Numbered from the stretch's first letter, positions 6,311 to 37,953 are shown. The stretch: DNA of 38,030 bases from Escherichia coli (GCF_003334315.1 NZ_QOWR01000046.1), one strand, 5' to 3'. A program made the numbers and translations. Notes: generated by a model from the letters alone, not told the origin.

Positions 6311-7662
6311 TCTTCTCTGACTGGCCGTGGCGTCACTGGCGGCAAGTGCGGGGAGAAACCATCGCCTTACGTCTTAATGACGAGCAACTCAACTGGCGCG
6401 AGCTTTGTGCTCGCGTCGATGAATTAGCCTCCGGATTTGCGGTGCAGGGGGTGGTTGAGGGCAGCGGCGTGATGTTGCGGGCGTGGAATACGCCGCAAAC
6501 GCTGCTCGCCTGGCTGGCGTTACTGCAATGCGGGGCGCGGGTGTTGCCCGTGAACCCTCAGCTGCCGCAACCGTTGCTTGAAGAATTGCTGCCCAATCTG
6601 ACGCTGCAATTTGCGCTGGTGCCGGATGGGGAAAACACGTTTCCGGCATTAACGTCGCTGCACATTCAGCGGGTTGAAGGCGCACATGCCGCTACGTGGC
6701 AGCCGACGCGTCTGTGCTCAATGACGTTGACCTCGGGTTCTACCGGGTTGCCGAAAGCCGCTGTCCATACTTATCAGGCCCATCTTGCCAGTGCCGAAGG
6801 GGTGTTATCGTTGATTCCGTTTGGCGATCACGATGACTGGTTGCTCTCTTTACCGCTGTTTCACGTCTCCGGTCAGGGAATTATGTGGCGCTGGTTATAC
6901 GCTGGTGCGCGGGTGACGGTGCGTGATAAACAGCCATTGGAGCAAATGCTGGCAGGCTGTACTCACGCTTCACTGGTGCCAACACAACTCTGGCGTTTGC
7001 TGGTTAACCGCAGTTCCGTTTCCCTGAAAGCGGTGTTACTTGGCGGCGCGGCTATCCCGGTCGAGTTGACGGAACAGGCGCGCGAGCAGGGGATTCGTTG
7101 CTTTTGCGGCTATGGTCTGACCGAGTTTGCCTCCACGGTGTGTGCGAAAGAAGCCGACGGCCTGGCAGACGTTGGTTCGCCGCTGCCGGGTCGGGAAGTG
7201 AAAATCGTTAATAATGAAGTGTGGCTGCGGGCTGCCAGTATGGCAGAAGGTTACTGGCGTAACGGGCAACTGGTTTCACTGGTTAATGACGAAGGCTGGT
7301 ACGCTACGCGCGATCGCGGTGAGATGCATAATGGCAAGCTGACCATTGTCGGACGTTTAGACAATCTATTCTTCAGTGGCGGAGAGGGTATTCAGCCGGA
7401 AGAAGTCGAGCGCGTAATTGCTGCACATCCTGCGGTTTTGCAGGTGTTTATCGTCCCCGTTGCCGACAAGGAGTTTGGTCATCGACCGGTGGCGGTGATG
7501 GAGTATGACCACGAGAGCGTTGATCTTAGTGAATGGGTGAAAGATAAGCTGGCCCGTTTTCAGCAACCGGTGCGTTGGTTAACGTTGCCGCCTGAACTGA
7601 AAAACGGCGGTATTAAAATTTCACGTCAGGCGCTAAAAGAGTGGGTGCAACGTCAGCAATAA
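6307..7662 (+). CDS. menE: o-succinylbenzoate-CoA ligase (adenylate-forming enzyme)
   Basis: 451-aa ORF, 4-nt overlap with menC; [12 protein letters not shown]-binding motif. Confidence 0.92.
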
Positions 7663-34160: not shown

Positions 34161-36446
34161 TCAGATCTTACATGCGCCGCTTTCGCAGCCATCGTCCTGG
34201 ATTGACGGCACCAGATCGTCTTGTGCGTCTTCAGCGCCGTCACGGGTGTTCTGATAATACAGTGTTTTGACCCCGAATTTGTAGGCGGTGAGCAGGTCTT
34301 TCAGCAACTGCTGCATCGGCACTTTTCCTGACGGGAAGCGTGACGGATCGTAGTTGGTGTTGGCAGAGATCGACTGATCGATAAATTTCTGCATGATACC
34401 CACCAGTTGCAGATAACCATCGTTACCCGGCATTTCCCACAGCAGCTCATAGGCGTCGTGCAGGTGCTCGTAGTCCGGCACCACCTGGCGCAAAATACCG
34501 TCTTTCGACGCTTTGATGCTGACGTAACCGCGCGGCGGTTCAATACCGTTAGTGGCGTTAGAGATCTGCGAAGAAGTCTCGGACGGCATCAGAGCAGAAA
34601 GCGTGGAGTTACGCAGACCGTGCGTTTTGATTGACTCACGCAGAGCTTCCCAGTCGTAATGCAGCGGCTCATTAGCGATGGTATCCAGATCTTTCTTATA
34701 GGTATCGATCGGCAGGATCCCTTTCGCGTAAGTGGTTTCGTTAAACCACGGGCACGCGCCTTGCTCTTTCGCCAGCTCATTAGAGGCTTTCAGCAGGTAA
34801 TACTGAATGGCTTCGAAGGTTTTATGCGTCAGGTTGTTGGCGCTGCCGTCGGAGTAGCGTTTACCGTGCTTCGCCAGGTAGTAAGCGAAGTTGATCACAC
34901 CAATACCCAGCGTACGACGACCCATCGCTCCACGTTTGGCGGCCGGGATCGGGTAATCCTGATAATCCAGCAGCGCGTCAAGTGCACGAACCGCCAGAAT
35001 TGCCAGCTCTTCCAGTTCATCCAGGTTATTAATTGCGCCCAGGTTGAAAGCAGACAGCGTACACAGCGCGATTTCACCGTTCTCGTCGTTGACGTCGTTC
35101 AGCGGTTTGGTCGGCAGGGCTATCTCCAGGCACAGGTTAGACTGACGCACTGGCGCGATGGCCGGATCAAACGGGCTATGGGTATTGCAGTGGTCAACGT
35201 TCTGAATATAGATACGACCGGTAGACGCACGTTCCTGCATCATCAGCGAGAACAGCTCAACGGCTTTCACACGCTGCTTGCGGATGCTGTCGTCTTTCTC
35301 ATATTTGGTATACAGACGTTCAAACTCTTCCTGATCGGCGAAGAACGCGTCGTACAGCCCCGGTACGTCGGACGGGCTGAACAGGGTGATATCTTCACCT
35401 TTCAGCAGACGGGTATACATCAGTTTGTTGATTTGTACCCCGTAGTCCATATGACGCACGCGGTTGCCTTCCACACCACGGTTGTTTTTCAACACCAGCA
35501 GGCTTTCCACTTCCAGATGCCACATCGGGTAGAACAGCGTTGCCGCACCGCCGCGCACACCGCCCTGAGAGCAGGATTTCACCGCTGTCTGGAAATGTTT
35601 GTAGAACGGAATGCAGCCGGTATGGAACGCTTCACCACCGCGAATCGGGCTACCCAGCGCACGAATACGCCCGGCGTTGATGCCGATCCCGGCACGCTGG
35701 GAAACGTATTTAACAATCGCGCTGGAGGTGGCGTTGATGGAATCCAGGCTGTCACCGCACTCGATCAGTACGCAGGAGCTGAACTGACGAGTCGGGGTAC
35801 GCACGCCGGACATGATTGGCGTCGGCAGCGAAATTTTAAATGTGGAAACCGCGTCGTAAAAACGCTTCACATATTGCAGGCGCGTTTCACGCGGGTAGTT
35901 CGAGAACAAGCACGCGGCAACTAGAATATAAAGGAACTGGGCGCTCTCATAGATTTCGCCGGTCACGCGGTTCTGTACCAGATATTTGCCTTCCAGCTGC
36001 TTAACGGCAGCATAAGAGAAGGTCATATCACGGTCGTGATCGATAAAGGTGTCCATCTGCTTGAACTCTTCTTCCGTGTAGTCTTCCAGCAGATGATTAT
36101 CGTATTTGCCCATCTCGACCATTTTCACCACGTGGTCGTACAGCGCAGGCGGCTCAAACTGGCCGTAGGCTTTTTTACGCAGGTGGAAGATCGCCAGGCG
36201 CGCGGCGAGATACTGATAATCCGGCGCATCACGGGAGATCAGGTCTGCGGCAGCCTTGATAATGGTTTCGTGGATGTCAGAGGTCTTGATACCGTCATAA
36301 AACTGAATGTGGGAGCGCAGCTCGACCTGGGAAATCGAAACGTTATGCAGTCCTTCTGCCGCCCAATCCAGAACGCGATGGATTTTGTCGAGATTGATGC
36401 GCTCTGTGCTACCGTCGCGCTTTGTCACCAGCAGATTCTGATTCAT
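34161..36446 (-). CDS. nrdA: Ribonucleoside-diphosphate reductase 1 alpha subunit (class Ia R1)
   Basis: 761-aa ORF with N-terminal ATP-cone, recognised NrdA sequence. Confidence 0.95.
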
Positions 36447-36523
36447 GTATGTCGTACCTGTTTTTGGAATTCTTTCCGCAATAGTTTCATGCAGACTACC
36501 TGTAGTACGGGAAGCTGCTTAGA

Positions 36524-36570
36524 ACACTATATATAGGGGGTATGTTTGGGATTCACTGCAAGATAGTGTG
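36524..36570 (-). promoter_or_regulatory. nrdAB promoter region with two NrdR-box-like palindromes
   Basis: acactatatataggg (36524-36538) and cactgcaagatagtgtg (36554-36570), about 80-125 bp upstream of the nrdA ATG. Confidence 0.5.
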
Positions 36571-36599
36571 AAAATGACCCTCTTGCAAGTGCATAACTT

Positions 36600-36608
36600 T
36601 GTGGATAA
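36600..36608 (-). promoter_or_regulatory. DnaA box (TTATCCACA on the minus strand)
   Basis: Exact 9-mer tgtggataa on the plus strand upstream of the nrdA promoter. Confidence 0.55.
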
Positions 36609-37141
36609 CTCAGGAAGGAAAAAGTGGCTTTCGCGCACCTTAGGTCAGACAAGGTGTCCGGGAAAGTCAATGGGAAGAGAAAAATTTGTTAAAAATAACT
36701 GTTCGGCGATTTCTTGAACGGCATAATAGGTTAGATAAATTGATATAGATGGTTTATTAATCTTTTTGCTAATGATTGCAAAAATTGATCTAAGCACGAG
36801 TCATCACATAATCTGATGTATCAGTTGTGGTCAATATATAAGCGAATGTAAGAGATTGTTGATGGCGAAATGGTTGTTTTCTATTCGGTTATTGTTAAAT
36901 GCTAAGCCATTTTGTTAATTTACCTTATATTATAAGAAAATTATTCATGACTTTAATTTAGTTTAAATATAACTGATATCCCTGAAGGTTATTAACTTGA
37001 ATTATGACGCACTGATATTATTCATCAAATAATAACAAAATAGCCATTGCACCGGGTTGAACAATTTACAAAAGAAAGATATTCCATATCGTATAATGCG
37101 ATTAAATACGCCGTCTTATAGAAAATGATGGTTAGATTAAT

Positions 37142-37953
37142 ATGCGGATTATCTTTCTACGCAAGGAGTATTTATCTTTACTCCCGTCAATGATTGCATC
37201 TCTTTTCTCTGCTAACGGTGTCGCGGCGGTCACTGATTCATGCCAGGGATATGATGTCAAAGCGAGTTGTCAGGCCAGCAGGCAAAGCCTTTCAGGCATT
37301 ACGCAGGACTGGAGTATCGCTGATGGGCAATGGCTGGTTTTTTCGGATATGACCAATAACGCCAGCGGTGGGGCCGTATTTTTGCAACAAGGAGCAGAAT
37401 TTTCACTATTACCAGAAAATGAAACTGGAATGACTCTGTTTGCCAATAACACCGTTACAGGAGAATATAATAACGGCGGGGCCATATTTGCTAAAGAAAA
37501 CTCAACGCTGAATCTTACTGATGTTATTTTTTCCGGTAACGTCGCAGGCGGCTATGGTGGCGCAATTTATTCTTCTGGTACTAACGATACTGGTGCCGTC
37601 GATTTACGTGTCACTAACGCCATGTTTCGCAATAACATCGCTAATGATGGCAAAGGTGGCGCAATTTATACCATTAATAATGACGTTTATTTAAGTGATG
37701 TTATTTTTGATAACAACCAGGCATATACATCAACAAGTTACAGTGATGGCGATGGCGGGGCAATCGATGTTACCGATAATAATAGCGACAGCAAGCATCC
37801 TTCAGGTTATACGATAGTAAATAACACTGCCTTTACAAATAACACTGCCGAAGGTTATGGCGGGGCGATATATACCAATAGCGTGACGGCTCCCTATCTT
37901 ATTGATATTTCTGTTGATGACAGCTACAGCCAGAACGGAGGCGTGTTAGTCGA
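37142..37953 (+). pseudogene. yfaL: Autotransporter adhesin YfaL/EhaC-like, N-terminal passenger fragment, interrupted at about codon 270 by an IS element
   Basis: Open frame from ATG 37142 (MRIIFLRKEYLSLLPSMIASLFSANG...) with repeated GGAIY/NNTA beta-helix motifs; the frame is not in the ORF track because it has no stop in the window; character changes abruptly at 37954. Confidence 0.7.

Follow-up and report, generated by a model that had tools for sequence, protein, structure and literature searches.

A probable two-part organization of the divergent nrdA–yfaL intergenic region of Escherichia coli

Introduction

The DNA between nrdA and yfaL in E. coli consists of a well-studied control region, that of the nrdAB operon, and a catalogued promoter island, and nearly all of what it contains is already known. 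At nrdAB, two non-selective DnaA boxes and one DnaA-ATP box have been described, and DnaA acts there as an activator or a repressor according to its nucleotide state and level. Fis and IciA sites have been reported for the same promoter, and H-NS has been reported as a repressor of the operon. According to the titles of papers on nrd, its cell-cycle regulation needs an AT-rich cis element located upstream, together with an inverted repeat of 45 bp; the published repeat has been placed upstream of the DnaA boxes. A further regulator, NrdR, recognizes operators whose 16-bp boxes are defined by conserved C4, A6, A8, T9, T11 and G13 (2026 preprint). In published papers, one of the boxes assigned to nrdAB, here called box 0, lies over the -10 element and the transcription start site. 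Two boxes for HusR (YnfL) have been listed in a HusR genomic SELEX table, published 2026.

On the yfaL side, the closest described systems are the promoter islands. Island 2342143_534, 'yfaL/ypaB', is one of the 78 islands of Panyukov and Ozoline (2013); every ChIP-chip study considered scored it as H-NS-positive, and predicted foreign genes are associated with it. In genomic SELEX, both H-NS and RpoD holoenzyme bind the yfaL/nrdA spacer. A relative of the nrdA promoter itself is known from phage P1, whose records annotate an 'nrdA-like promoter' with a DnaA box.

Here, we compare these descriptions with the corresponding DNA in a stretch of 38,030 nucleotides from E. coli (GCF_003334315.1 NZ_QOWR01000046.1), which we call the window. 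A sequence-only reading of this stretch had proposed NrdR and DnaA control of nrdA on one side of the spacer and H-NS silencing of yfaL on the other. That interpretation is partly supported: it is right in outline, with one element superseded and two omissions.

Location and composition of the spacer

The last 8 kb of the window correspond to the inaA–yfaE–nrdB–nrdA / yfaL region of E. coli in its K-12-type form. The nrdA–yfaL spacer occupies exactly positions 36447-37141 (695 bp; Table 1), and differs from that of K-12 MG1655 at a single base. A megablast search with positions 36300-37300 as the query returned matches in all 5426 complete E. coli genomes, many of them at 100% identity, and the RefSeq annotation at the matched loci names nrdA, ypaB and yfaL.

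The GC content of the spacer is 0.337, and that of its distal part (36661-37141) is 0.291, compared with a mean of 0.516 (sd 0.050) for 481-bp windows across the whole stretch. The distal value is close to the minimum of all such windows (0.287), only 0.06% of which are as low. The long AT-rich divergent region proposed from sequence alone is thus real and its boundaries are exact; the windowed GC check that had been suggested for it places the distal ~480 bp near the lowest value in the window. The accompanying statement that this DNA has many A/T tracts holds in part, since tracts of at least 4 are twice as frequent as elsewhere but show no excess over composition (13, versus 11.1 +/- 3.1 in shuffled sequences); the signal is AT-richness rather than the tracts. 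A scan of positions 36000-37600 against Rfam gave no match at E <= 1, and hence no evidence of an RNA element. A search for terminators found none, and the ORFs of at least 20 aa in the AT-rich tract are short and unremarkable.

Table 1. Features of the nrdA–yfaL spacer and its borders, in window coordinates
Feature	Position	Strand	Sequence or remark
nrdA ORF	34161-36446	minus	ATG at 36446
nrdA 5' untranslated leader (putative)	36447-36553	minus	~107 nt
NrdR box 2	36493-36508	minus	GTACTACAGGTAGTCT, central AG; PWM rank 2 in window
NrdR box 1	36524-36539	minus	CCCCTATATATAGTGT; PWM rank 1/38015; first palindrome of the sequence-only reading
NrdR box 0 (historical)	36556-36571	minus	TCACACTATCTTGCAG; overlaps -10; second palindrome of the sequence-only reading (36554-36570)
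nrdAB core promoter (putative)	36560-36588	minus	read from sequence
-10 element (putative)	36560-36565	minus	TATCTT
-35 element (putative)	36583-36588	minus	TTGCAA; 17-bp spacer to -10
ypaB ORF	36574-36717	plus	47 aa; RefSeq annotation; over nrdA promoter
Second DnaA box	36588-36596	minus	TTATGCACT (8/9); abuts -35
Consensus DnaA box	36600-36608	minus	TTATCCACA; exact; sole exact copy in 38 kb
HusR (YnfL) box	36611-36626	minus	published box sequence located in window
HusR (YnfL) box	36646-36661	plus	published box sequence located in window
Conserved upstream block	36662-36720	minus	CGTTCAAGAAATC...TTTTTCTCTTCCCATTGAC; alignable across both promoter layouts, including genera without yfaL
yfaL-linked AT-rich tract / H-NS-bound 'promoter island'	36721-37141		~29% GC
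Imperfect 37-bp inverted repeat	36757-36793		TTTTTGC-N8-GCAAAAA core; at strongest predicted curvature peak
Predicted yfaL sigma-70 promoter	36785-36812	plus	TTGATC-16-CATAAT; consensus scan, prediction only
yfaL	ATG at 37142	plus

The nrdAB control region

Upstream of nrdA, we read a putative nrdAB promoter that matches the consensus at 8 of 12 positions, which is under the threshold of our promoter scan. From the position of its -10 element, we infer a transcription start at ~36553; a weak sigma-70 promoter, TTGCAA-17-TATCTT, would thereby initiate transcription ~107 nt before the nrdA ATG. The position of the promoter is supported by CRISPRi work, which places the nrdA promoter within ypaB, and by the annotation in P1. 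The leader is interrupted in a UPEC allele by a 13-bp deletion (36466-36478). Farther from nrdA lie the two HusR boxes and the conserved upstream block; the segment that includes most of this DNA (36613-36725) is 83-93% identical among Escherichia and Pseudocitrobacter. The box and promoter sequences in the window are exactly those of published oligonucleotides.

We scanned the whole window with a position weight matrix (PWM) for NrdR built from no sites other than the four boxes of nrdHIEF and nrdDG, and therefore independent of the nrdAB locus. Matches as good as box 1 are expected 0.005 times per shuffled window. This box has 6 of 6 conserved positions, is near-invariant in a 30-genus alignment, and was found in ~75 loci; its mutation abolishes NrdR binding, according to the work cited in a 2025 paper. 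It is the first of two NrdR-like palindromes that had been noticed from sequence alone ('acactatatatag', starting at 36524), and that assignment is confirmed by the top PWM score. The partner of box 1 is the downstream box 2, which the earlier reading missed; box 2 lies beyond a 15-bp linker, has 5 of 6 conserved positions (G9), and has a PWM match of a quality expected 1.7 times by chance. The second palindrome that had been noticed, 'cactgcaagatagtgtg', is indeed present at 36554, but it is box 0, a weak NrdR binder, and its pairing with box 1 is outdated. Box 0 ranks only eighth in the PWM scan, with ~16 such matches expected by chance, and is not significant alone; it has 5 of 6 conserved positions (C6), and what supports it is the 16-bp linker to box 1 together with positional conservation. 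Both box pairs, 1-2 and 0-1, lie immediately upstream of nrdA. Through box 1 and box 2, the nrdAB operon would be shut down when dNTPs accumulate, with box 0 a degenerate ancestral partner of box 1 that would contribute little in E. coli.

The exact DnaA 9-mer that had been placed on the minus strand of the spacer was likewise recovered in a search with the DnaA consensus TTATNCACA. As a count, the 9-mer is marginal, since allowing up to one mismatch gives 6 matches in the whole window versus 7.0 expected. Its conservation is another matter: in 32 related loci, the consensus box stays unchanged at a set distance upstream of box 1 (-79, or -69 in Escherichia and Pseudocitrobacter). A second DnaA box, the other omission of the earlier reading, is a direct repeat of the consensus box 12 bp away. 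On the nrdA strand, the order is TTATCCACA (36608-36600), AAG, TTATGCACT (36596-36588) running into the -35 element TTGCAA (36588-36583), such that both boxes are immediately upstream of the -35. Among 79 promoters that we classified, the tandem arrangement is found only in Escherichia and Pseudocitrobacter. DnaA-ADP, or a low level of DnaA-ATP, would help RNA polymerase at this promoter, and high DnaA-ATP would repress nrdAB, which would tie dNTP synthesis to the initiation of replication. The proposal that the nrdA side of the spacer carries cell-cycle- and dNTP-responsive control agrees with the literature, in which regulation of nrdAB from this spacer by both DnaA and NrdR has been published.

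Weak plasmid matches in the megablast search came from P1-like phage-plasmids. P1, P7 and SJ46 carry, upstream of hot, 115-130 bp that are 82-95% identical to positions 36570-36699 (82% for the P1 copy and 94.6% for the P7 copy). The P1/P7 copy shares with E. coli the -35 TTGCAA, both DnaA boxes and the upstream block; unlike the E. coli locus, it is without the NrdR boxes and the nrdA leader, and it lies between upfN and hot, overlapping upfO. We considered these matches as something new and rejected that idea, because the 'nrdA-like promoter' is already annotated in P1-like phage-plasmids.

Two existing annotations of the nrdA-proximal DNA offer different readings of it. In the accepted annotation of 2005-2007, NrdR represses nrdAB through box 1 and box 0, the latter lying over the -10 element, by directly blocking RNA polymerase. 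The linker between these boxes is exactly 16 bp, a box at the box 0 offset occurs in ~75 Enterobacterales loci (scores of 5-12, and better, ~11, in the layout without a downstream box), and mutation of the upstream box in Salmonella raises nrdAB expression. However, the Kd of E. coli NrdR for box 0+1 is >6000 nM, compared with 96-113 nM for box 1+2, a ~50-fold preference (2025 paper), and gel shifts with a 185-bp fragment are insensitive to mutation of box 0. The failure of box 0 has been attributed to the C at position 6, which must be changed to A for a gain in affinity, in this case tenfold (2026 preprint). Moreover, the PWM score of box 0 is within chance for the window, and its conservation is confounded with that of the -10 element. 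We therefore regard repression through box 0 and box 1 as unlikely in E. coli, and favour box 1 + box 2 as the operator; pipelines and readers that use the 2005-2007 box pair should switch to this one. The positional conservation of box 0 and the Salmonella box mutations may nevertheless leave room for an in vivo role that short-oligonucleotide assays miss. The second annotation is ypaB, which would encode a 47-aa protein divergently from nrdA. K-12 and most RefSeq E. coli genomes carry this ORF in their annotation, it is also open in phage P1, as upfO, and the HusR study quantified a ypaB transcript by RT-qPCR. Yet the UPEC_U013 allele has lost the start codon (A36574C), E. albertii has an in-frame stop, and in four comparisons the substitutions are distributed evenly across the codon, with no third-position bias (4/2/0, 4/1/4 and 9/6/9; 12/15/15 versus P1 upfO). 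The ORF overlaps the DnaA boxes, the -35 element and the HusR boxes, which account for the conservation of its DNA, and the CRISPRi phenotype at ypaB has been attributed to the nrdA promoter. A real YpaB protein is thus very improbable. Judged by its substitution pattern and its broken alleles, ypaB is probably not a real gene, and we suggest that it be treated as regulatory DNA.

The AT-rich tract upstream of yfaL

Promoter-like sites are abundant around the spacer, with 9 in positions 36300-37300 versus 3.9 +/- 1.9 in shuffled sequences. For yfaL itself, the promoter predicted by our scan has the same hexamers that the RpoD holoenzyme genomic SELEX table lists for this gene; we found no mapped yfaL start site. 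GadE and GadX have been reported as regulators of yfaL, and the biofilm phenotypes of YfaL were obtained with a constitutive promoter inserted before the gene; yfaL behaves as a cryptic gene.

The tract resembles the H-NS-bound promoter islands in being AT-rich, dense in promoter-like sites, H-NS-positive and beside a patchily distributed gene. It differs from other islands in that it borders directly on the promoter of an essential housekeeping operon and, at its proximal edge, overlaps the conserved block upstream of nrdA. We take the catalogued island to correspond to approximately 36657-37190 in the window, assuming a genome-version offset of 1978 bp (old nrdA coordinate).

The distal DNA had been described from sequence alone as typical of H-NS-bound, silenced promoters. 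H-NS binding is well documented: the H-NS ChIP data that had been proposed as a check are positive for this tract in all the published ChIP-chip studies considered, and genomic SELEX agrees. Silencing is a step beyond this; we found no measurement of yfaL derepression in an hns mutant in the searchable literature, and we infer that H-NS would bind the tract as a platform and keep yfaL all but switched off in laboratory conditions. The high-affinity H-NS 10-mer TCGATAAATT was tried as additional evidence and set aside, because its 2 near-matches (36732 and 36783) compare with 1.8 expected from composition. Because the tract is <200 bp from the nrdAB promoter, it is probably also the source of the reported H-NS repression of nrdAB. 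The picture of nrd control on one side and silencing on the other is thus sound in that both sides exist in outline, but the two are not cleanly separate, given that H-NS is also a reported nrdAB repressor.

A curvature calculation, the other check proposed with the sequence-only reading, gave a divided result: there is one strong peak, at 36777, which ranks among the window's four highest in a simple, rough wedge model that deserves little weight, but the spacer overall reaches only the 91st percentile. At this peak is an imperfect inverted repeat that holds the spacer's only GATC and is not conserved in L003 or E. albertii. It is the best candidate for the published 45-bp inverted repeat. 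Given the reported cell-cycle elements of nrd, part of the 'yfaL' tract may serve nrdAB directly.

Two other explanations of the tract bear on its link to yfaL. The simplest is that its low GC is the ordinary AT bias of intergenic DNA, with no special explanation needed. E. coli intergenic DNA is generally AT-richer than genes, and neither the A/T tracts nor the H-NS 10-mer are commoner than composition predicts. However, the 481-bp distal stretch, at 29% GC, is 4.5 sd under the window mean and is the sole stretch <0.36 GC in 38 kb, the ancestral part of the same spacer has 44% GC, and the tract has been catalogued independently as an H-NS-bound promoter island; we give the explanation by ordinary bias almost no credence. 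A more serious proposal is that the tract serves chiefly to control nrdAB from upstream, with curved DNA, Fis/IciA sites and the cell-cycle cis element, rather than a platform for silencing of yfaL. The paper titles that describe a required upstream AT-rich sequence and inverted repeat favour this, as do the listing of H-NS as an nrdAB repressor and the coincidence of the strongest predicted curvature with the inverted repeat at the nrdA-proximal edge of the tract. Against it, genera without yfaL have no such tract, and a homologous control region of ~270 bp fills the interval between the post-ubiG REP elements and nrdA. Furthermore, tract identity is 42-49% among yfaL-bearing relatives, compared with 81-96% for the proximal part, and even E. 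albertii lacks a conserved copy of the inverted repeat; such fast drift is unexpected in a control element of an essential operon. We consider this proposal rather doubtful, though less so than ordinary bias, and prefer to regard the tract as DNA linked to yfaL.

Distribution of yfaL and origin of the spacer

We scanned species-representative genomes with the NrdA N-terminus, and obtained 80 Enterobacterales loci, a set without Salmonella, Shigella and E. fergusonii. In ~70 of the 80, ubiG is the gene next upstream of nrdA. In 6 of the ~80, a yfaL homologue intervenes between the two genes (an E. coli-labelled genome, E. albertii, Pseudocitrobacter, Buttiauxella, RIT691 and one Rahnella); in every case it diverges from nrdA, from which it is separated by a spacer of 650-730 bp; the homologues have 52-78% protein identity to K-12 YfaL. 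This patchy distribution at a fixed site supports an accessory or transferred status for yfaL, consistent with the suggestion that the gene was horizontally acquired. Base composition gives that suggestion no support. K-12 yfaL has 51.4% GC overall and 44.9% in its first 1 kb; as a gene it is not atypical, and only the first 1 kb and the upstream tract are AT-rich. Between ubiG and the 3' end of yfaL there is only REP-like sequence, the same as follows ubiG in Citrobacter lacking yfaL, and the annotation of the gyrA–nrdA interval shows no integrase or tRNA.

In a multiple alignment, homology with genera lacking yfaL extends from the nrdA ATG to ~36720. Strict local alignment of the E. coli spacer with the spacers of those genera found only box 1; the wider homology needed the multiple alignment. 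In yfaL-bearing relatives, the proximal 279 bp are 96%, 89% and 81% identical and the distal 416 bp are 49%, 49% and 42% identical. The distal tract is confined to loci with yfaL, and can hardly be aligned from one allele to another. The UPEC allele shows the same change, with ~1% divergence in nrdA that rises to 10-24% per 50 bp past position 36700. The limit of homology and the drop in identity indicate that the spacer consists of ~274 bp of ancestral nrdA control DNA and ~420 bp of fast-evolving, yfaL-linked DNA. We therefore think it very likely that the spacer has two parts, an ancestral nrdAB control region at ~36447-36720 and a yfaL-linked AT-rich tract at ~36721-37141. For this two-part model, the positions, statistics, conservation and boundary are those of the present analysis; protein binding and regulatory effects are taken from the papers.

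Two promoter layouts in Enterobacterales

Our comparative observations are a modest extra, not a discovery, although the sharp boundary between ancestral and yfaL-linked DNA and the existence of two DnaA/NrdR layouts could be of some interest for how essential-gene promoters evolve beside acquired DNA. The 79 promoters were classified relative to box 1. In 32 loci, including E. coli, an exact DnaA box lies upstream of the -35 element. In 43 loci, the upstream DnaA box is degenerate and DnaA boxes, exact ones included, are found at +16, +28 and +46 (inverted) from box 1, where the three occupy the place of E. coli NrdR box 2. The promoters of Citrobacter, Enterobacter and Pantoea illustrate the second layout: they share with E. 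coli box 1, the Shine-Dalgarno region and an upstream block, AAGAAATC...ATTGAC, but differ from it in the downstream DnaA trio, the degenerate upstream DnaA box and a better upstream NrdR box. All promoters have an upstream NrdR-like box at the 16-bp linker, with the highest scores in the 43-locus layout, whereas good scores for a downstream box at the 15-bp linker are confined to Escherichia, Pseudocitrobacter and two other loci. As judged from these alignments, DnaA and NrdR sites have turned over between the two layouts.

The layouts are discordant with the similarity of nrdA itself. In its first 200 bp, the nrdA gene of E. coli shares 91-92% identity with that of Citrobacter, a genus with the other layout, but only 80% with that of Pseudocitrobacter, whose layout is the same; this discordance hints at replacement of the control region by recombination, although repeated turnover of sites would also account for it. 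A search for breakpoints by sliding identity in nrdA placed the discordance at or upstream of the start codon, where transfer and differential retention fit alike. More tentatively, the Escherichia nrdAB control region could be a lineage-specific mosaic, a possibility that we hold to be the less probable one: the arrival or retention of yfaL would have put an H-NS-nucleating tract ~170 bp from an essential promoter, in which case the control of nrdAB by H-NS would be a side effect of a xenogeneic neighbour, and the same lineage would have gained the tandem upstream DnaA boxes and a new box 2.

Two layouts of the nrdA promoter

We compared promoter layouts over approximately 330 bp upstream of nrdA in the Enterobacterales nrdA loci L003-L082, with the nrdA ATG at position 7001 in most of these loci. 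Two layouts were found. One, seen in 32 loci, has a DnaA box upstream of the -35 element; the other, seen in 43 loci, has three DnaA boxes directly downstream of NrdR box 1, occupying the site of E. coli NrdR box 2. Promoter layout does not track similarity of the nrdA coding sequence. In the UPEC-type allele represented by UPEC_U013, the nrdA 5' leader lacks 13 bp (GGAATTCTTTCCG; window 36466-36478) and two substitutions (36507, 36508) affect the outermost positions of NrdR box 2.

The annotated small ORF ypaB overlies the nrdA -35 element together with the DnaA and HusR boxes. A UPEC allele lacks the ypaB start codon, a stop interrupts the ORF in E. albertii, and substitutions within it are not biased towards any codon position. 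ypaB is therefore unlikely to be a real gene.

Coordinates of the nrdA promoter block and its mobile copies, ypaB and REP-like sequences
Feature	Sequence	Coordinates	Strand	Remark
nrdA -35, DnaA-box and upstream block shared with phage	window	36570-36699		
Phage copy of nrdA promoter block	L086	1501-1615		phage P1
Plasmid copy of nrdA promoter block	L085	4001-4115		P1-like plasmid
ypaB, small ORF	window	36574-36717	+	RefSeq annotation
REP-like sequence	L002	2291-2417		K-12 ubiG-yfaL spacer
REP-like sequence	L005	6573-6700		

A copy of the nrdA promoter in phage P1

The block comprising the nrdA -35 element, the DnaA boxes and the sequence upstream of them has a copy, 82-95% identical, in phages P1, P7 and SJ46, and the same copy is carried by many E. 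coli P1-like plasmids. In these phages and plasmids, hot, which encodes a homologue of Pol III theta, lies immediately downstream. Unlike the E. coli nrdA promoter, the phage copy has no NrdR boxes. The copy is known: P1 records already carry the annotation 'nrdA-like promoter'.

Borders and alleles of yfaL

A REP-like sequence (GCCGGATAAGGCG...) follows ubiG in E. coli, ahead of the yfaL 3' end, and likewise follows ubiG in Citrobacter that lack yfaL; thus, on its left side the yfaL segment is bounded within or beside REP elements. Strain SCPM-O-B-8794, labelled E. coli, encodes a YfaL (L003, 2538-6299) just 78% identical to that of K-12. The tract upstream of its yfaL is closer to E. albertii than to K-12, and the nrdA promoter of this strain shares 96% identity with that of the window. 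This allele seems to be missing from nearly all of 5426 complete E. coli genomes.

In strain 23CRST009 (L084), an IS1 has inserted approximately 30-40 bp ahead of the start codon of yfaL, corresponding to window positions ~37104-37111; the annotation of this strain lists yfaL as a pseudogene containing an internal stop. Exact 25-mers are shared between this IS1 and window positions ~37-390; hence, the start of the window appears to lie in or beside an IS1 copy.
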